Source: a virus
DNA length: 44,782 nt
IMG/VR virus record: IMGVR_UViG_3300045988_061090
Reading direction: 5' to 3' (one strand)
The notes beneath the pieces were generated by a model that was given only the letters and a program-made list of their open reading frames with translations, made no database searches and had not been told where the DNA came from. The position numbers were made by a program, and so were the translations under genes. Positions within the stretch are counted from its first letter, which is position 1, and each line of letters starts with the position of its first letter. Positions 30,564 through 36,626 of the stretch are shown in pieces.

Positions 30564-31787
30564 TTACGCCATTTTCTTGTCTTGTATTGTCTCGAATATT
30601 TGTTCTTTTTGAATTGATTTTGAGGTTCCATTTTCGACGCATTTTAGACACGGAATTTTCTCGATTTCTTTTCGGAGATCTTCTAGTGCCCTATGTCCGT
30701 ATACTTCATTTGTGACATCCATAAATTTGTGTCCCAACATTCTTTTTCGGTCATTTTCTTTTACCTCGTATTTTTCGCAAAGGGCTGAGAAAGTGTGCCG
30801 ACAGTCATGCGGTGTATGTTCTCCGATTCCGAGAGATTTGATGTAGGTCCTCATAGACTCTCGGAATTTGACATCAGATAAAGGCATTATTTCACCATAT
30901 TTCCTTATTCGTTTTTTGACAATCGGGTAAATAGCCGAGTGGATAGGGACGATTCGATCTTTACTTGTCCTTGTTTTCAAGCCACCCGAAAAGAAACATT
31001 TTTTTAGATCAGTTTTTATAACTTTCAATTCTCCGATACGATACCCTGTATAACACATAATTAGGAGTACTTGGGCAATATCATTGTCTTCATGATTCCA
31101 CAGTCGTTCTATATCTCGGATACTAAACGGAACCCCGTGCTCATCATCGTCTGGAATATTGATGCGCAGCAGCTCTGTAGGATTTTTTTCTATAAAGTTT
31201 TGAGCTAAAGCATATTTAAACATCTGCTTTAGGAGTGATACTATCAATTCCAGACTGGCGTGTTTAAGCGTAGAAGCGTCTACAATGCGTTGTAATTGCT
31301 CATAGGTGATATTCTTTACCTTCTCCCCATGAATGGCTTCACAGTTCTTGTACGCAGCCCTGGTGGACCTTTTGGATTGATCAGAATATTGTTTCTTCCC
31401 ATCATATTTCCATGTATAGTATTTTTCGTATAATTGAGTAAAAGTCATGTGACCCTTATCTTCTTGGACCGGACGTACTGCTATAGTGTAATCTGCAAGG
31501 ATTCGTTTAGTAAACCCATGTAAGTCCCCATCATCCATGGCACGCATGATTTCCAGCTCTTTTTCTAGCCCTGGTTTATAAGTACCAGCCTTGTAAGCCA
31601 TCAGAACCGAGAAACCTACATACCAATCAGATACATAGCATAAAGCTTTGGGAGTTACTGGTTTCCCATCTTCACCAAAGTCTTTCACAGGTGGGTGTAC
31701 TGCGTAAGCGACATTACGGTTTCCAGATAGTTTGCGGATACTGCCAAAACCATTAGGGAGATTTGGGTGTTTCTTCCTTTTTGCCAT
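30564..31787 (-). CDS. int: Tyrosine recombinase (phage integrase)
   Basis: The start MAKRKKHPNLPNGFG (ATG 31787) follows AGGAGG. Catalytic motifs are YTGYRIGEL, HDCRHTF and LGH...VYGHR. Confidence 0.9.
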   Translation of the reverse strand: MAKRKKHPNLPNGFGSIRKLSGNRNVAYAVHPPVKDFGEDGKPVTPKALCYVSDWYVGFSVLMAYKAGTYKPGLEKELEIMRAMDDGDLHGFTKRILADYTIAVRPVQEDKGHMTFTQLYEKYYTWKYDGKKQYSDQSKRSTRAAYKNCEAIHGEKVKNITYEQLQRIVDASTLKHASLELIVSLLKQMFKYALAQNFIEKNPTELLRINIPDDDEHGVPFSIRDIERLWNHEDNDIAQVLLIMCYTGYRIGELKVIKTDLKKCFFSGGLKTRTSKDRIVPIHSAIYPIVKKRIRKYGEIMPLSDVKFRESMRTYIKSLGIGEHTPHDCRHTFSALCEKYEVKENDRKRMLGHKFMDVTNEVYGHRALEDLRKEIEKIPCLKCVENGTSKSIQKEQIFETIQDKKMA

Positions 31788-31944
31788 AAAATCATCCTCC
31801 TTTTGGGTATAAAAATAACAGCCAGCGCGAACGAGTGTTCCGCTTGCGGGGGCTGTCCGAAGATGATACAATATTACCGACCAAAGTAATAGCATATCTT
31901 CGGATATGTGGCCGCTCCTGTTGGCGCAGGGGCGGTTTTTACGT

Positions 31945-31973
31945 TTGACAAATAGTTTGCTTTGACATATAAT
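31945..31973 (+). promoter_or_regulatory. Perfect consensus promoter for the antitoxin sRNA
   Basis: The sequence reads TTGACA-aatagtttgctttgaca(17)-TATAAT. Confidence 0.7.
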
Positions 31974-31979
31974 ATACTT

Positions 31980-32086
31980 AACAAGACAGCCGACAGGTAG
32001 GTGCAAGCTACCCGTTCCGGCGAATTAAAACGAACTTAGTAAGCCGTCCTATCCGACCAAGATACAGGGCGGCTTACTTATTTTTC
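31980..32086 (+). ncRNA. Candidate type I antitoxin sRNA (~105 nt), convergent with the toxin gene
   Basis: It would start about 7 nt after the -10 and end at a 12-bp-stem terminator (32039-32050 / 32066-32077) followed by ttattttt. Its 3' end is antisense to the toxin's last codons. Confidence 0.5.
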
Positions 32087-32154
32087 AAATTTAGAATAGC
32101 AACAACAAGCAATGAGAATGTAAGTAAAATTTGCATTTCCTCATATGTACTCAT
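32074..32154 (-). CDS. 26-aa hydrophobic peptide, holin-like type I toxin family
   Basis: Hand translation gives MSTYEEMQILLTFSLLVVAILNLKNK. RBS is AAAGGGGA. It resembles the Firmicutes putative holin-like toxin family (MS.YE.l.lm..F..l.v). Confidence 0.6.
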   Translation of the reverse strand: MSTYEEMQILLTFSLLVVAILNLKNK

Positions 32155-32303
32155 AAGTATTTCCCCTTTCCGCAAGACTCGGAACGGGAACCAGCACGCC
32201 CCTCGGCTGCCCGGGTAAGTATATTATATTGTCAAGGTGCTGCCCCTACGGTTGGATGGACGTAGGGGCGCGATAATATTCAATTAAGCATATGTATAGA
32301 TGG

Positions 32304-32966
32304 TTATTTATTAATGACAAATTTTATGTCATTTGCTGACCAAAAATCTGGTGAAACATTAATTTCAAAGTTTGAATAACTCACCGGAACTTGATAAGCG
32401 ATCACTCCATTCATTTTCTTTCCAGCGGCAACACTTCCATCGAGTTGATTTTTGCCTTCTATTTCAGGAGCTTGTAATCCGAGTAAGTCTTGATTTAGAG
32501 AATAATCATCACAATATGCTTCAAAGTTTGCGACAGAACTTATATTGATATCTGAACCAGAATTATTAACAATTTCAAATTCAAGAAGTAAAAAAATGTT
32601 TCCTTCGTCTGGGGTTACATATTCACTCCCTTGTGATTCAGTTGCTGATATAAGTGTGACTTGAATATCTTTTTGTTCTGCTGTTTCGCCTACGCTAAAT
32701 TCAGTTTTTTCTTCTTTCTCTGGTTCTTCTGTATTTTGTGTTTCTTTATTTGTTGAATTTTCTGTGTTTTTTGGTTCCGTTGTTTCTACTTTTTTAGGAG
32801 TGTCGTCCCCACCGGCAGCAGCTCCAATAATTGCAATTACAATTACTATAATTATAATCCATTTCAGTTTTCCACCTTGTTTTTTTCGACAATTAGGACA
32901 CACTTTTGCATCAGCAGGTATTTCAGACTTGCAATGCTTACATAATTTTGTTTTTTTCTTTTCCAT
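32304..32966 (-). CDS. Zn-ribbon - TM - DUF4352-like extracellular domain protein
   Basis: The order is CKHC..CPNC, then a TM segment (WIIIIVIVIAIIGAAA), a T/E/K-rich linker, and a beta-rich domain (IFLLLEFEIVNNS..VAAGKKMNGVIAYQVP). Confidence 0.65.
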   Translation of the reverse strand: MEKKKTKLCKHCKSEIPADAKVCPNCRKKQGGKLKWIIIIVIVIAIIGAAAGGDDTPKKVETTEPKNTENSTNKETQNTEEPEKEEKTEFSVGETAEQKDIQVTLISATESQGSEYVTPDEGNIFLLLEFEIVNNSGSDINISSVANFEAYCDDYSLNQDLLGLQAPEIEGKNQLDGSVAAGKKMNGVIAYQVPVSYSNFEINVSPDFWSANDIKFVINK

Positions 32967-33015
32967 AAGTTTTCCTCCTAATGGTAATATTTATTAAAAC
33001 GCCGTAGCGGTTTAA

Positions 33016-33735
33016 TCAGCTATTCGCTATGTCAATTAGAGATAATAGCTTTTCCCTATCCCACAACTTTACACCAAGCATTTCAGCTTCTTCTTTTGCC
33101 TGTGGAGTAAAATCTCTATTAGTCAGTACAACAGCAATGTCTTTTTTATAGATGCTTTTACCTGTATGTGCTTGTTGTACAGCAGCATTTCCAATATTTC
33201 CAGTATAACATTTCGTTTGTATGGCATAACTAATATCATCTTTCTCCGCTAAAATGTCTATTCCATGATCTCCACTCCCTCTAGTTACCTCTACATTTTT
33301 AAACCCATTCTTCTTTAGTAGATCGGCACAATAGTGTTCAAATCTATGTCCGTCCATACTATCAAAATTTTGATCTTTAGCTTTGGAATCTTCGGAATTT
33401 TCGGAATCAATAGGAGGGTTGACATATCTAAATCCAAGATGTCCACGGTTTTGTGTTTGATTATTATTGGAGCTAGGTCTATTTATTAATAGACGGTTAT
33501 TTTTCCCCATAAGGAATTTAATAATCTTTTTTGCACACCAATAAATTACATCAAATGGGATAACAAAAAAAATGAAAAATATAATCATCATCCCAAACCA
33601 GTCAAATAATGCGACTTTTTGACCATCTATTTCGCTGTGCATAAAAGCAACTCCAAATATCAAAATCAGACATATTGATGGAATTGGGCATAAAAATTTA
33701 AAATATTTGTTTTTGTATATATTAGTAATTTTCAT
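33016..33735 (-). CDS. Membrane-anchored Mrr_cat-type restriction-endonuclease-fold protein
   Basis: Two N-terminal TM segments precede a C-terminal FEHYCADLLKKNGF..GSGDHGIDILAEKDD..YAIQTKCY motif (D..D-x-QxK). Confidence 0.65.
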   Translation of the reverse strand: MKITNIYKNKYFKFLCPIPSICLILIFGVAFMHSEIDGQKVALFDWFGMMIIFFIFFVIPFDVIYWCAKKIIKFLMGKNNRLLINRPSSNNNQTQNRGHLGFRYVNPPIDSENSEDSKAKDQNFDSMDGHRFEHYCADLLKKNGFKNVEVTRGSGDHGIDILAEKDDISYAIQTKCYTGNIGNAAVQQAHTGKSIYKKDIAVVLTNRDFTPQAKEEAEMLGVKLWDREKLLSLIDIANS

Positions 33736-33772
33736 CTTAAGGTACCGAGAAATTTAAATATTTCCTTTCCTG

Positions 33773-34000
33773 TTATTTACTATGAGCAGCACTTTCTATT
33801 GATTGAACAGTAAATTTGTCAAAATCGTTATTTAGAATATGCCCCATGGCGTGCTCATAAGCTTCTAGTCTTCCAATATCAGATAATCTAGCGTTTATAA
33901 ATATAGTATAACTTCCATCCTCATTTGGATGAATCATTTCTCTTCCTCTACAAGGAAAATCTACTATTTGTAAATTAATAATCGGTTCCATCCTCTCCAC
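33773..34000 (-). CDS. Short ImmA/IrrE-like protein with non-canonical metal motif
   Basis: 75 aa. TIFINARLS...AYEHAMGHILNNDFD resembles the short ImmA-like proteins found next to XRE repressors, but it reads EHxxGH rather than HExxH. Confidence 0.45.
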   Translation of the reverse strand: MERMEPIINLQIVDFPCRGREMIHPNEDGSYTIFINARLSDIGRLEAYEHAMGHILNNDFDKFTVQSIESAAHSK

Positions 34001-34361
34001 GCTCCTTACGTTTTAGAGCGAGAGCCATTTGGTGTAATGCTTTTAAGTCTTGGGGTTCCATGTCTCTTTGTACGTCAAATAGCGCTCGTAATTCTTTGTT
34101 CTCAAATATTTCTTGGGCTACCTGGGCAGTCTCATCATTAAGATAGTACCTTTCTCCTTCTTTTTCTTCTCCGGTCATAAGATAATCAACAGATACTCCA
34201 AAATAATCCGCTATTTGCTGGAGTTTTGTCGCAGTAGGGACAGTCCCTTTTGTTCGGAATTTCCCAATATATCCACGGCCAAAACCCAACTCTTTTTCGA
34301 GTGCTGTAATGGCTATTCCGTGTTGATTACATAACTTAGCAATTATTTCATATGTTGTCAC
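33975..34361 (-). CDS. CI-like XRE-family repressor
   Basis: GTG 34361 follows AGGAGGA. The HTH is ITALEKELGFGRGYIGKF...KLQQIADYFGVSVDYL, with a C-terminal dimerisation-like tail. Confidence 0.8.
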   Translation of the reverse strand: MTTYEIIAKLCNQHGIAITALEKELGFGRGYIGKFRTKGTVPTATKLQQIADYFGVSVDYLMTGEEKEGERYYLNDETAQVAQEIFENKELRALFDVQRDMEPQDLKALHQMALALKRKERGEDGTDY

Positions 34362-34381
34362 AGTATCCTCCTTTTTTAAAA

Positions 34382-34397
34382 GTAGAAAAAAATCTAC
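34382..34397. promoter_or_regulatory. Operator O1 (GTAGAAAAAAATCTAC palindrome)
   Basis: A perfect 5-N6-5 inverted repeat abutting the -35 of the + promoter. It is identical to O2. Confidence 0.6.
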
Positions 34398-34405
34398 AAA
34401 AACTA

Positions 34406-34434
34406 TTGACAACGTAGAAAATAGGCTATATAAT
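34406..34434 (+). promoter_or_regulatory. Perfect consensus rightward promoter
   Basis: The sequence reads TTGACA-acgtagaaaataggcta(17)-TATAAT. The spacer carries an ACGTAGA half-site. Confidence 0.7.
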
Positions 34435-34447
34435 ACAAATATACGAG

Positions 34448-34463
34448 GTAGAAAAAAATCTAC
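34448..34463. promoter_or_regulatory. Operator O2 (GTAGAAAAAAATCTAC)
   Basis: An identical 16-mer lying at about +7 to +22 of the rightward promoter. Confidence 0.6.
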
Positions 34464-34509
34464 CAGACATATGATATACGTTGTCTTTTATAATTATGCT
34501 GGTAACTTA

Positions 34510-34538
34510 ATTATAGAATAAAATCTACGTTGTGTCAA
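34510..34538 (-). promoter_or_regulatory. Perfect consensus leftward promoter facing the rightward one
   Basis: The minus strand reads TTGACA-caacgtagattttattc(17)-TATAAT, with the same ACGTAGA half-site after the -35. Confidence 0.7.
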
Positions 34539-34546
34539 TATGTATA

Positions 34547-34562
34547 GTAGAATTTTTTCTAA
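34547..34562. promoter_or_regulatory. Operator O3 (GTAGAATTTTTTCTAA, degenerate copy)
   Basis: The arms are GTAGA and TCTAa, just upstream of the leftward -35. Confidence 0.4.
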
Positions 34563-34580
34563 GAAAGAAAGGAGGGTTCA

Positions 34581-34685
34581 ATGAAAAACAGGAAATTATT
34601 TTGGTTGATATGTTTTCTGCTGTCAGCGATAAGCGGGTCACTAGGGGGGATTTTGGGTGTTATTGTAGTACGAGCATTGTTATGA
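34581..34685 (+). CDS. 34-aa single-TM peptide
   Basis: Hand translation gives MKNRKLFWLICFLLSAISGSLGGILGVIVVRALL. A strong AAAGGAGGG RBS lies 6 nt upstream. Confidence 0.5.
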   Translation: MKNRKLFWLICFLLSAISGSLGGILGVIVVRALL

Positions 34686-34860
34686 GTGACGCTATAAACC
34701 CAAATAAAGCACCTATGGTAGCGCTGAATAAGGCAACTCGATAATCATGCCTCCATTGTTGTTTGCGGAGTTCCTTTCCCTTTGCTTCTTTTAGCTGTTG
34801 TTCAATAACACCGTTAGGAATAACTGTTCCTTTGGACATTTCTGGTAATTTAAAGTCCAT
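34660..34860 (-). CDS. Tail-anchored membrane protein A
   Basis: 66 aa with RBS AAAAGGAGAAAAAC and a C-terminal TM (ALFSATIGALFGFIASLITMLVL). It shares its 5' region with gene B. Confidence 0.6.
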   Translation of the reverse strand: MDFKLPEMSKGTVIPNGVIEQQLKEAKGKELRKQQWRHDYRVALFSATIGALFGFIASLITMLVLQ

Positions 34861-34880
34861 GTTTTTCTCCTTTTGTTTTT

Positions 34881-34917
34881 TTGATAACAGTATAGAAGAA
34901 AATCTATAAAACTACAA
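34881..34917. promoter_or_regulatory. Overlapping divergent promoters (cro-like rightward, gene A leftward) around a TATAGA-N6-TCTATA palindrome
   Basis: The + strand reads TTGATA-18-TATAAA (34881-34910). The minus strand reads TTGTAG-17-TATACT (34917-34889). The palindrome spans 34891-34908. Confidence 0.55.
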
Positions 34918-34933
34918 GAAGGGAAGTGATAAA

Positions 34934-35119
34934 TTGCTTATTTATGACAAAGTGAAAACTATCTGTGAAGAAAAAGGTATGAGTGTTAGGCAGGTAGAAT
35001 ACGCTGCGGGTTTGAAGAATGGGGCTATAGGCAAATGGAATGAATCTAGTCCAACAATTAAGAGTTTAAAAGCAGTAGCGGATGTTTTGAAAGTAAAAGT
35101 AGACAAGCTGATTTCTTAG
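34934..35119 (+). CDS. Cro-like XRE-family HTH protein
   Basis: 61 aa with a TTG start. The HTH is MSVRQVEYAAGLKNGAIGKW...LKAVADVLKVKVDKL. Confidence 0.75.
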   Translation: MLIYDKVKTICEEKGMSVRQVEYAAGLKNGAIGKWNESSPTIKSLKAVADVLKVKVDKLIS

Positions 35120-35138
35120 AATGAGGAAAGGAGGAAAT

Positions 35139-35243
35139 ATGAAGAAAGAAAAGAAACCGCCAAAGATAACGGTTTCAGATGTGGGATTGGTAATGTCAAT
35201 TATTACTCTGTTATTTGTACTTTCAGGGATATTTTTAAAATAA
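35139..35243 (+). CDS. 34-aa single-TM peptide
   Basis: Hand translation gives MKKEKKPPKITVSDVGLVMSIITLLFVLSGIFLK. RBS is AAAGGAGGA. Confidence 0.5.
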   Translation: MKKEKKPPKITVSDVGLVMSIITLLFVLSGIFLK

Positions 35244-35546
35244 TCCCAAGCGTCCACACAATTCAAGAAGAAAAGCAAGAAAAGCTATTACAACAGAAAT
35301 CCAACCTTTAATATCAGCTTTTTGAGATTGTTTAGAAGCAATTTCAGATTGGATTTTTGCGGAATCAGCAATTTTCATGGAAGAATTAGCTAATCGCTCA
35401 GCAGAATCAGCTTTTTGCTCAGCGGAATCAGCAATTCTTTTTACGGAATTCATAAATTCTTTCTTTTGCTGCTGTTCTTCCTTAAAATTTTCAATTTCAA
35501 TTTGAGAATGGTATGAATCGAGTGGATTTGATGGTATGAATCTCAT
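35235..35546 (-). CDS. Tail-anchored membrane protein B with ADSA repeats
   Basis: 103 aa with repeats IADSAEQKADSAERLANSSMKIADSAK and a C-terminal TM. Its 5' region duplicates that of gene A. Confidence 0.6.
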   Translation of the reverse strand: MRFIPSNPLDSYHSQIEIENFKEEQQQKKEFMNSVKRIADSAEQKADSAERLANSSMKIADSAKIQSEIASKQSQKADIKGWISVVIAFLAFLLELCGRLGLF

Positions 35547-35612
35547 GTTTTTTCTCCTTTTTGATAACAGTATAGGAAAAAATCAGGAGAAAAGCAAGAT
35601 AAGGAGGCGGAA

Positions 35613-35714
35613 ATGTACATACCAGAATTTGCCCTTGGATTTATCGCAGGGGCGGTAGTAGGAATCACGACATTAATCATAATAGCACTTATCGCAGATA
35701 AAAGAGATAAGTAA
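35613..35714 (+). CDS. 33-aa single-TM peptide
   Basis: Hand translation gives MYIPEFALGFIAGAVVGITTLIIIALIADKRDK. RBS is AAGGAGG. Confidence 0.5.
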   Translation: MYIPEFALGFIAGAVVGITTLIIIALIADKRDK

Positions 35715-35844
35715 AAAGCCCCGGCAGTGCTGGAACCACTACCGAGGCAACGCAACCAACTAACCTGTCTAGCTGTTTGCAAGATTATACTAACATATTT
35801 TCCTGCAAATGGCAAGAACAAATGTTCTAAAATTGGAGGAAAAG

Positions 35845-36000
35845 ATGAAAAAAGAAGAAATCAAGACATGGAAAGAAGCAGAAGGATGGGCAGTAGAGGT
35901 TATCAGCCAAGAAAAAAGGAAGACAAGGAGATGGTTTATTGCATGGATTTTGACCTTGGCAGCATTGTTCGTGTCCAACCTAATATGGATATTTACATAG
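35845..36000 (+). CDS. 51-aa protein with C-terminal TM
   Basis: ATG 35845 follows a TTGGAGGA RBS. The sequence reads MKKEEIKTWKEAEGW...RRWFIAWILTLAALFVSNLIWIFT. Confidence 0.5.
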   Translation: MKKEEIKTWKEAEGWAVEVISQEKRKTRRWFIAWILTLAALFVSNLIWIFT

Positions 36001-36003
36001 GAG

Positions 36004-36252
36004 GTGAAACATCTGAGACCAATTATACGGAGTGCAGAGCAGGCGGCTTATATCTTACAGATTCCCCCTCAGGCATTTCGGGAGCAGACAAAAAGGGGGA
36101 AAAATGTTTACAGCAGAGTAGCAAATACAAGCAAAAAGCGCAGGATTTACGAATTTTTCCCGTATGTTGCAGCGGAAGAATTAAAAGTACCGCTAGAAAT
36201 ATTGGAAAAGAGGAACCAAGAGTATGAAAAAGCTATTGAAGGACCCCGCTAG
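36004..36252 (+). CDS. Small HTH-like protein (possible excisionase or DNA-binding protein)
   Basis: 82 aa. SAEQAAYILQIPPQAFREQTKRG resembles Xis/AlpA-type HTH. The start codon is uncertain because GTG 36004 abuts the RBS. Confidence 0.4.
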   Translation: MKHLRPIIRSAEQAAYILQIPPQAFREQTKRGKNVYSRVANTSKKRRIYEFFPYVAAEELKVPLEILEKRNQEYEKAIEGPR

Positions 36253-36421
36253 GGATCTGGCGATCACGGGCCTGTTGGCGTACCTGATTACCTACTCAGG
36301 ATTTTTTGAGTTTGGCCGGACATCTCAGATGATCTGTACTTTTCTAGGGATGGCCTTGGTGATTTTAATCGCGTTGATCTGGTTGGAAAGTAAAAATGAG
36401 CCCCAGGGCGGCAACCCATAA
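36224..36421 (+). CDS. Two-TM small membrane protein
   Basis: 65 aa with two hydrophobic segments. Confidence 0.5.
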   Translation: MKKLLKDPARDLAITGLLAYLITYSGFFEFGRTSQMICTFLGMALVILIALIWLESKNEPQGGNP

Positions 36422-36488
36422 GGCTCTAAATAAAAGAATACAGGTAAAATACCTGTCTTTATCATAAAAGAAAGAGAGGGAAATGTCA

Positions 36489-36626
36489 AATGATTAAAGT
36501 AGATTACGAAGATTTCATTCGATTAATCAAAGCAGAAGAGAGACTGGAAATCATTAAAAGAATGACGAATAAAGATGAATGCATTCTTTCAAAAACATTG
36601 AAAAAGATTATTGGAGAGTCAGATGA
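36489..36626 (+). CDS. Hypothetical 45-aa protein
   Basis: Hand translation gives MIKVDYEDFIRLIKAEERLEIIKRMTNKDECILSKTLKKDYWRVR. An ATGA stop-start overlap links it to the next gene. Confidence 0.4.

Follow-up and report, generated by a model that had tools for sequence, protein, structure and literature searches.

We analyzed the putative lysis-lysogeny switch of a 44,782-nt virus sequence, IMG/VR record IMGVR_UViG_3300045988_061090; this whole sequence is referred to here as the window. By its gene content, the window reads as a complete temperate siphovirus-like phage genome from human metagenome samples, and the closest relatives of the phage are prophages of gut Clostridia, e.g., Lachnospiraceae. 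On one side of the switch lies a leftward lysogeny block consisting of int and genes for a DUF4352/zinc-ribbon protein, a membrane-anchored Mrr_cat protein, a 72-75-aa protein and a CI-like helix-turn-helix (HTH) protein. On the other side lie the rightward early genes, the first of which, at 34934, encodes a 61-aa Cro-like HTH protein. The features on which the analysis turns are listed below. Promoters were scored as matches out of 12 to the consensus −35 and −10 boxes, and start sites were set at 7 nt past the −10 box.

33773..33991, minus strand: p75/p72, minimal ImmA/IrrE (Peptidase_M78) homolog, phrog_20886, overlapping the 3′ end of cI
33975..34361, minus strand: CI/ImmR-like repressor gene, 128 aa, GTG start, Shine-Dalgarno (SD) sequence AAGGAGGA
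34382-34397: O1, perfect palindrome GTAGAAAAAAATCTAC, 8 bp upstream of the P-right −35 box, centre at about −51.5
34406-34434, plus strand: P-right, TTGACA-17-TATAAT, 12/12, predicted start at about 34441
34414-34429: OspR, GTAGAAAATAGGCTAT, filling the P-right spacer and touching the −10 box, two mismatches
34448-34463: O2, perfect palindrome GTAGAAAAAAATCTAC, identical to O1, at about +8 to +23 relative to the P-right start and about +40 to +55 relative to the P-left start
34538-34510, minus strand: P-left, TTGACA-17-TATAAT, 12/12, predicted start at about 34503
34513-34528: OspL, ATAGAATAAAATCTAC, in the P-left spacer and overlapping the −10 box by 3 nt, one mismatch
34547-34562: O3, GTAGAATTTTTTCTAA, mirror image of O1, 8 bp upstream of the P-left −35 box, centre at about −51.5

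The initial annotation of this region had proposed two perfect consensus promoters that face each other, with start sites about 60 nt apart and overlapping transcripts. The coordinates of both promoters proved exact, each matching the consensus at 12 of 12 positions; the predicted starts (about 34441 and about 34503) are 62 bp apart, and the predicted transcripts overlap by about 63 nt. The perfect TTGACA-17-TATAAT arrangement occurs three times in the window (P-right, P-left and a site at 31945-31973) and not once in 100 dinucleotide shuffles. Since both promoters score 12/12 and the shuffles yielded no perfect match, the two promoters are unlikely to be chance occurrences. P-left is also the sole minus-strand candidate scoring at least 9/12 from the cI start (34361) to 34626. 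For lack of any other leftward promoter at that threshold, the cI message must start at P-left and cross O2, P-right and O1, in agreement with what had been claimed for the leftward transcript. In the window the open reading frame (ORF) that follows P-right is not cro; it is a 34-aa ORF (34581-34685). Judged by relatives in which cro stands directly after the promoter (L001-L009, including L003, and L014), P-right is ancestrally the promoter of cro and the early genes.

A short motif, TGGTA(A/C) (TTACCA on the transcribed strand), was noted at 34499-34509, about +1 to +8 of P-left. It recurs at the same place in L001, L003, L010, L026, L043, L054, L060, L068 and L096, despite wholly different operators, and its role might be that of an initial transcribed sequence, a signal for pausing or a binding site for a host factor.

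Three operators bracketing the promoters had also been proposed. O1, O2 and O3 are real: GTAGAAAAAAATCTAC is present at both O1 and O2, with O1 just upstream of the rightward −35 box and 20 bp upstream of the cI start codon, and the degenerate copy GTAGAATTTTTTCTAA lies upstream of the leftward −35 box at 34547-34562. The count of three was incomplete, as two more sites lie in the promoter spacers, and O2, which had been placed at +7 to +22, is one base off, at about +8 to +23. An ACGTAGA motif said to follow both −35 boxes directly does so at P-right; at P-left it comes 2 nt later. These motifs are the left halves of the spacer sites OspR and OspL. Altogether, the word GTAGA-N6-TCTAC is present in five copies in 34382-34562 and in a sixth at 34892-34907, where the related palindrome expected to overlap the cro-like promoter was found as ATAGAAGAAAATCTAT within TTGATA-18-TATAAA. 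With at most one mismatch, the word occurs five times in the window, against 0.9 expected, and four of the five occurrences fall within 34382-34562. The site plan is mirror symmetric: each promoter has an upstream site and a spacer site, and O2 is an extra site just past the P-right start. The centres of O1, OspR and O2 are 32 and 34 bp apart, about three helical turns, and these three copies span P-right.

We examined the conservation of this layout in two sets of loci. A search with the CI protein gave 23 IMG/VR loci, to which two loci sharing the 30-mer of O1 and the −35 box were added, and a scan of genome contigs gave 80 prophage loci with a related repressor N-terminal domain, from Lachnospiraceae, Oscillospiraceae, Anaerotignum, Streptococcus and others. 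Promoter order in these 80 census loci and in shuffled sequences was as follows.

Both promoters at least 10/12: face-to-face in 44 of 80 loci, back-to-back in 3 of 80; shuffles, 0.3% face-to-face and 1.2% back-to-back
Both promoters at least 9/12: face-to-face in 64 of 80 loci, back-to-back in 7 of 80; shuffles, 9.7% face-to-face and 21% back-to-back

On these counts, face-to-face is the majority layout for this repressor family. The rightward start always lies 74-99 nt from the CI start codon in the census, and the distance between the two starts is mostly 44-90 bp in Clostridia and about 109 bp in Streptococcus, with a range of 40-130 bp across the relatives. IMG/VR relatives, at CI identities of 38-73%, likewise have the face-to-face layout. 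At 73% CI identity, the words are those of the window and both promoters are perfect; relatives at 69%, 56% and 43% keep the promoter pair with other words, TTCTGAAAAAATCGCAA and AGTTCNGAAATC; and those at 38-46% keep the pair about 110 bp apart. The same promoter order was found in isolated phages with a related repressor N-terminal domain, namely, Listeria PSA, pneumophage IPP43, Psychrobacillus Spoks, Paenibacillus HB10c2, Lactococcus TPW22 and bIL312 and Dulem virus 35. The facing promoters of Dulem virus 35 are 62 bp apart, and its five-site plan is that of the window with TTAGGA..TCCTAA as the word. Two loci, L011 and L012, carry the same CI C-terminal domain and the same small downstream protein as the window with an unrelated HTH and have no face-to-face pair; by eye, the promoters of L011 are back-to-back. 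These two loci indicate that the face-to-face layout belongs to a module made up of the N-terminal domain, the intergenic region and cro and is inherited with it rather than with the induction module. Taken together, the comparative evidence shows a layout that, by these counts, is under selection.

If the repeated words are operators, their positions should outlast changes of their sequence, and this is what we observed across relatives: the word varies (GTAGA..TCTAC, TTCTGAAAAAATCGCAA, AGTTCNGAAATC, TTAGGA..TCCTAA, CCGAAGTAAT, CTATGAAAACTAAG) and the positions stay. Recurrence was scored in 31 loci (specificity groups) whose spacer words mutually differ at more than 3 of 12 positions, and the word of the P-right spacer was sought elsewhere in each locus at a match of at least 9/12. 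Averaging the words at fixed offsets blurred all except the O1 peak, and a best-in-window analysis was used instead, with the following result.

O1 equivalent, 30-32 bp upstream of the spacer word: 14 of 31 loci; control windows, 1 of 31
O2 equivalent, +29 to +34 from the spacer word: 7 of 31 loci; control windows, 1 of 31
P-left spacer equivalent, opposite strand: 8 of 31 loci; control windows, 1 of 31
O3 equivalent, upstream of P-left, opposite strand: 5 of 31 loci; control windows, 1 of 31

With the threshold at 8/12, the O2 equivalent was detected in 15 of 31 loci, against 5 of 31 for the control, and a spacer word was seen in every specificity group inspected. The word also covaries with the recognition helix of the repressor HTH. 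The window and L001 have the helix GFGRGYIGKF and the GTAGA word in common, and L003 and L014 share the helix GF(G/A)KGY(I/V)SKL and the word TTCTGA..TCGCAA yet differ in their C-terminal domains. In L010, the helices of CI and Cro are identical (TKSTFSDWK). The proposal that the palindromes are operators is supported by this covariation, and the repeats appear to behave as such. With the corrections given above, the sequence analysis upholds and extends the reading first given to the region.

The repressor itself has an N-terminal XRE HTH (Pfam HTH_3, 5e-8; PHROG category transcriptional regulator) and a conserved C-terminal domain of about 55 aa, ETAQVAQEIFENKELRALFD...LALKRKERG, with …ENKELRALFD… within it. 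In a Pfam scan only HTH families matched CI, no S24 peptidase domain was found and the C-terminal 60 aa were without a match. The C-terminal domain recurs behind unrelated HTH domains (L001-L013, L026, L027, L035-L053) and is, by this distribution, a mobile module. Directly downstream of cI, in the same orientation, lies the gene for p75. Homologs of p75 accompany the CI C-terminal domain in 15 of 15 loci that have the domain and in none of 16 that do not, and p75 is thus a probable partner of this domain. On its own, p75 gave no sequence match in Pfam, NCBIfam or PDB. Proteins of similar size downstream of other CI relatives contain HExxH and match Peptidase_M78 (PF06114), the ImmA/IrrE domain, and an HExxH protein stands at this position in about half of the face-to-face loci. 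Alignment of the p75 group by hhalign with these mini-HExxH proteins, which were found by synteny, gave 99.3% and E 3e-20. An AlphaFold2 (AF2) model of p75 (pLDDT, the predicted local distance difference test score, of 77) has three strands and a long helix that bears the motif; a Foldseek search of PDB with this model gave no significant match, the best being the ImmA-like protease CapP at an E value of about 1. In p75 the motif reads HAMGH in place of HExxH, and the alanine at the glutamate position is conserved in at least 90% of the close family. Because the catalytic glutamate is replaced by alanine, p75 may act by binding rather than by cleavage. Some mini-ImmA proteins of this family retain HExxH and others, that of the window among them, have HAxxH; the latter may descend from a protease as anti-repressors that have lost catalysis. 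An HAxxH mini-ImmA strictly tied to one repressor C-terminal domain constitutes a separate lead on repressor inactivation.

From the sequence features and their non-randomness, the conservation of layout and geometry, the covariation of operator and helix and the protein homologies, we infer promoter activity, the assignment of proteins to sites, interference and a route of induction as follows. P-left would transcribe through O2, P-right and O1 into a leftward lysogeny operon beginning with cI and the mini-ImmA gene; if no terminator intervenes, the putative operon would continue through the lysogeny-module genes toward int. P-right would transcribe through P-left toward the early genes. A CI dimer would bind the 16-bp TAGA-N6-TCTA sites, and CI on O1, O2 and OspR would cover and shut P-right. 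With P-right silent, no polymerase would collide with the complex at P-left, which would keep making CI, as at pR/pL of phage 186. The weaker sites OspL and O3 may mediate negative autoregulation at high CI or may be the sites at which Cro shuts off P-left. Derepression would proceed via the CI C-terminal domain and the dedicated mini-ImmA, not via RecA-stimulated self-cleavage. At a start-to-start distance of 62 bp, the two promoters could both hold a polymerase without overlap, and one that fires would meet the other within about 20 bp, the sitting-duck situation described for 186. Mechanisms of transcriptional interference, sitting-duck among them, have been described (PMC5001618), and it is established, for 186 as for lambda PR/PRE, that repressing the convergent promoter relieves interference (PMC3675496, PMC5001618). 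We regard it as probable that the locus is a 186-like switch on an ImmR/ImmA chassis, in which cooperative binding of CI to O1, OspR and O2 shuts down P-right and thereby lifts the interference on P-left, OspL and O3 serve negative autoregulation or the action of Cro, and the pair of mini-ImmA and C-terminal domain derepresses.

Several observations weigh against this account. The predicted activity of both promoters comes from consensus matches, which are no proof of activity. Both score 12/12, unlike the strong pR and weak pL of 186, and interference of this symmetric kind may differ in its behaviour. With CI on O1, OspR and O2, polymerases from P-left would meet bound repressor, which could hinder them as a roadblock instead of helping; in work on lambda, repressors that exchange fast neither roadblock polymerase nor get dislodged (PMC5001618), and by analogy the same may answer the objection here. 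As p75 lacks the catalytic glutamate, proteolytic induction is uncertain. In the window, cro has a promoter of its own, and P-right may no longer be the main lytic promoter. Finally, only about half of the specificity groups show the five-site plan clearly, and it is weak in the Streptococcus/Listeria/Paenibacillus branch, where the starts are 95-118 bp apart. A broader proposal is that facing, near-consensus promoter pairs with mirrored operators are the default lysis-lysogeny design of a very large family of Firmicutes prophages. Bistability would then come from the mutual interference of equally strong promoters 40-130 bp apart, not from cooperative PRM-type activation, and the switch would be flipped by an ImmR/ImmA-type module, sometimes with a degenerate mini-ImmA. 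We put this forward tentatively, as somewhat short of an even chance. Such a family would span gut Lachnospiraceae and Oscillospiraceae, Streptococcus including the pneumophages, Listeria PSA/B025, Paenibacillus and the P335-type Lactococcus phages.

Two other accounts accept both promoters and differ on what the overlap does. Cross-inhibition might be mainly post-transcriptional, the roughly 63 complementary 5′ nucleotides forming a duplex that leads to RNase III cleavage or blocked translation; this could coexist with interference. Antisense RNA contributes in this way at the prgQ/prgX pair of the Enterococcus plasmid pCF10. Here, both genes have predicted 5′ leaders of about 140 nt that overlap, and the overlap is kept at 40-130 nt in relatives, but it lies about 75-80 nt from both ribosome-binding sites and its sequence is not conserved between specificity groups, save for O2 and the short TGGTA motif. 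In the P-right leader the fold does beat the shuffles (z = −2.46), which is explained entirely by O2 and O3 being inverted copies of each other; these two sites pair to form the stem, and the two differences between them are not compensatory. The fold of the P-left (cI) leader is not significant (z = −1.45), and an Rfam scan of 31500-36500 was without a match. We therefore hold a mainly antisense mode of control to be unlikely. Slightly less likely still is a neutral layout, in which the facing order is a frozen accident of an inverted duplication of a promoter-operator unit with no effect beyond long leaders, and control is by CI and Cro occupancy as in lambda. The promoter units are indeed mirror copies (operator, 8 bp, −35 box, spacer operator, −10 box), and the spacer operator in each would make each directly repressible. 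However, the order is kept in 44-64 of 80 loci, among them those of Lachnospiraceae, Oscillospiraceae, Streptococcus, Listeria, Paenibacillus and Lactococcus phages, despite drifting operators, repressors and inter-start distances, and back-to-back pairs are rare though shuffles make them twice as often. This persistence relative to the shuffle expectation argues for selection on the order itself and against neutrality.

The remaining two explanations concern single elements of the region, and we reject both as highly improbable. P-right could belong to a small-ORF cassette in which the 34-aa ORF encodes a toxic membrane peptide and the leftward transcript is its type I antitoxin, or in which the cassette is a moron. 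P-right is directly followed by this hydrophobic ORF with its strong SD sequence, and a type I toxin-like module with a perfect promoter is present elsewhere in the window. Relatives without the ORF nevertheless keep the promoter pair and the operators, with cro in its place, which largely refutes the idea; the ORF is also without a convincing homolog or family match. The palindromes, in turn, could be RNA hairpins (attenuators or terminators) in the cI leader instead of protein sites, as O2 on the minus strand scores as terminator-like, with a hairpin and then a U-rich tract, and O1 forms a hairpin just upstream of the cI SD sequence. Such stems would have only 5-6 bp with two or three G-C pairs, though, and copies also stand upstream of both −35 boxes, at positions that are not transcribed. 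Moreover, the words of other groups are imperfectly symmetric and form no comparable hairpins, yet keep the same positions, and the z score of the cI leader given above means that it folds no better than shuffles. The 186-like switch in which CI silences P-right and thereby frees P-left thus stays, in our judgment, the best supported account of the locus.

Between the switch and cro, the window differs from its closest relatives by an insertion, with the following features.

34563..34933: insertion of about 370 bp, absent from L001-L009, where cro starts right past O3
34581-34685, plus strand: 34-aa hydrophobic ORF that uses the ancestral cro SD sequence
34660-34860, minus strand: 66-aa ORF with a C-terminal transmembrane segment, within the insertion
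34881..34910, plus strand: Pcro, TTGATA-18-TATAAA, with palindrome ATAGAAGAAAATCTAT (34892-34907) in the spacer, assigned by eye
34934..35119, plus strand: Cro-like gene, 61 aa, HTH_3 (Pfam), TTG start

The Cro-like protein of the window is 85% identical to Cro of L001-L009, and the SD sequence ahead of the 34-aa ORF is the one that serves cro in the closest relatives. The insertion would thus have moved cro about 370 bp off and given it an operator-controlled promoter of its own, and P-right would now read first into the 34-aa ORF and then, probably, into cro. No rightward terminator was found between P-right and cro, which makes such read-through past the 34-aa ORF likely. Both small ORFs are kept in six independent metagenome copies of the phage. 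Searches of 120 loci gave no convincing homolog of either (best E 0.049, over 19 aa), and neither has a match in Pfam, PHROGs or NCBIfam. By eye, we also noted a weak promoter-like sequence on the minus strand, TTGTAG-17-TATACT (34917-34889, 8/12), which overlaps Pcro and shares the palindrome ATAGAAGAAAATCTAT. As it points at the 66-aa ORF and then cI, one may speculate that it is a second leftward source at a position comparable to that of pE in 186. Different small ORFs are inserted at the same position in Dulem virus 35 (L026, 340-1034), which, together with the insertion in the window, marks the gap between switch and cro as an apparent insertion hot spot. A 40-aa peptide encoded just past the window cro (35121-35243) has a counterpart, 72% identical, in the Dulem virus 35 insertion.

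In the index of the sequence collection, 256 blocks contain the exact CI protein; the places listed are human metagenome samples. Contigs that encode it are phage-sized (about 44 kb) or longer, up to 182 kb, and the longer ones suggest integrated prophages. We compared natural variation over 34331-34960 (about 630 bp) in six metagenome copies (L113-L118) with an identical CI protein. Every internal variable position among the six falls in O1, OspR or O2. The variants, all within 34385-34458, are one A more or one A fewer in the central A-tracts, G to A at 34424, G to A at 34451 and A to T at 34458. In one copy the central tracts of O1 and O2 each gain an A; another lacks an A in O1 and has a half-site change in O2. 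The two most altered copies sit on phage-sized contigs. These operator variants could be vir-like mutants or homopolymer errors, a question for which a sample of six copies is too small to decide.

Elsewhere in the genome, gene calls place the structural genes in the first 29 kb or so, as follows.

1 to about 29 kb, rightward: structural genes
30564-31790, minus strand: int, in the leftward lysogeny block

A search of isolated-phage DNA returned a single match, of 145 bp at 73% and inside cI, and thus no close isolate relative. Two products of the lysogeny block, encoded in 32304-33735, are candidates for a prophage role in defence or exclusion: a 239-aa protein that combines an Mrr_cat nuclease domain with hydrophobic segments at its N terminus, and a 220-aa zinc-ribbon/transmembrane/DUF4352 protein. 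The third perfect promoter (31945-31973, plus strand) would produce an RNA of about 95 nt ending in a long hairpin and T-run near 32040-32085. Converging on this RNA is a 26-aa ORF, MSTYEEMQILLTFSLLVVAILNLKNK (32152-32075, minus strand; stop codon at 32074-32072), which matches Pfam Hol_Tox (PF16935) at 25.8 bits against a cut-off of 23.3. The segment 31945-32235, flanked by int and the DUF4352 gene, resembles a type I toxin-antitoxin module with a 3′ overlap. The Rfam scan of 31500-36500, run in E-value mode, included this module as well as the switch leaders and gave no match. Within the rightward early region sits a near-perfect leftward promoter, TTGACA-17-TATGAT (36489-36461), adjoined by a perfect 17-bp hairpin at 36440-36456 that has a terminator score on both strands.

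Phage switches are conventionally either lambda-like, with back-to-back promoters, or 186/P2-like, with face-to-face promoters. The window resembles lambda in its divergent cI and small HTH cro, its shared graded operators, its leftward lysogeny genes and its rightward early genes. In lambda, however, PRM and PR stand back-to-back with a tripartite operator, and CI has an S24 autoprotease domain where the CI of the window has no Peptidase_S24 match; in the window, activation of the cI promoter would be indirect. In gene order and protein type, the window resembles ICEBs1 ImmR/ImmA, IrrE/DdrO and CapH/CapP, in which an XRE repressor without S24 is likewise followed by an overlapping, codirectional Peptidase_M78 homolog. 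Also shared with ICEBs1-type elements are the position of int, further downstream, and a small regulator gene divergent from that of the repressor. The ImmA-type partner in the window is a minimal, 72-aa version with HAxxH, not HExxH. The ICEBs1 promoters PimmR and Pxis are described as divergent (PMC11318856), whereas those of the window are face-to-face.

The facing order has been remarked on before in Firmicutes. A 2024 survey predicted convergent promoters in the ImmR/ImmA-like prophages phi5 and phi12 of Clostridium clostridioforme LM41 and invoked 186-type interference (PMC11318856). The 1999 GenBank record of Lactococcus phage TPW22 (AF066865) annotates −35 and −10 boxes in face-to-face order, with which our promoter scan agrees. 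By description, these Firmicutes prophages resemble the window in having an ImmR-like or rap repressor, a divergent HTH gene and facing predicted promoters; they are predictions or annotations of single phages, with no operator analysis, comparative census or interference experiments. Full-text literature searches retrieved no experimental study of face-to-face switches in Gram-positive phages. The pCF10 pair prgQ/prgX, also on a Firmicutes element and with an XRE-family regulator, has convergent promoters and overlapping 5′ transcripts and is bistable through interference and antisense RNA. It differs in controlling the pheromone response of a conjugative plasmid, with an overlap of about 220 nt, a peptide-sensing RRNPP-type regulator and no mirrored operator plan. 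To our knowledge, the face-to-face kind has been dissected only in Peduoviridae of enterobacteria.

The main value of the present comparison lies in its breadth and its comparative series, not in a new principle. The face-to-face design stands here on an unrelated protein chassis, in a family that spans prophages of gut commensals and of the pathogens Streptococcus pneumoniae and Listeria monocytogenes. If the interference is functional, it changes how induction and stability are to be modelled in many gut and pathogen prophages. In that case, dozens of natural variants in spacing (40-130 bp), promoter symmetry and operator plan would be available for testing sitting-duck, occlusion and roadblock models, and the switches would provide compact, orthogonal bistable parts for engineering Firmicutes.

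The closest counterpart in layout is 186, to which the initial annotation had likened the region. In the annotated 186 record, the cI start is followed by three CI sites over pR, by pL facing back from 62 bp away and then by apl, a geometry near identical to that of the window. In 186, and by promoter prediction in the window, cI is reached only through the lytic promoter; in both, int lies downstream of cI. In 186, convergent pR inhibits pL, and repression of pR by CI activates pL (record annotation; PMC3675496). The likeness holds for the facing layout and its geometry; comparison of the CI and Apl proteins makes it analogy, not homology, as the proteins are unrelated. The two CI proteins gave only a BLASTP hit at E 2.1 over 13 residues, that of 186 having PF07022 and PF16452 and that of the window HTH_3 and no Phage_CI_C. 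The Cro-like protein, a plain HTH_3 protein, gave no alignment with Apl, and neither an Apl/Cox-type excisionase-repressor nor a CII/pE was identified in the window. A strong pR and a weak pL in 186 contrast with two perfect consensus promoters in the window, where, unlike in 186, the lysogenic promoter too contains operators and each −35 box has a mirrored operator upstream of it. Phages 186 and P2, the latter with the promoter pair Pe/Pc, are Peduoviridae of enterobacteria, whereas the host of the window phage is a Gram-positive anaerobe. The most likely reading of these sequence comparisons is that the window works like 186 without being a member of that family.

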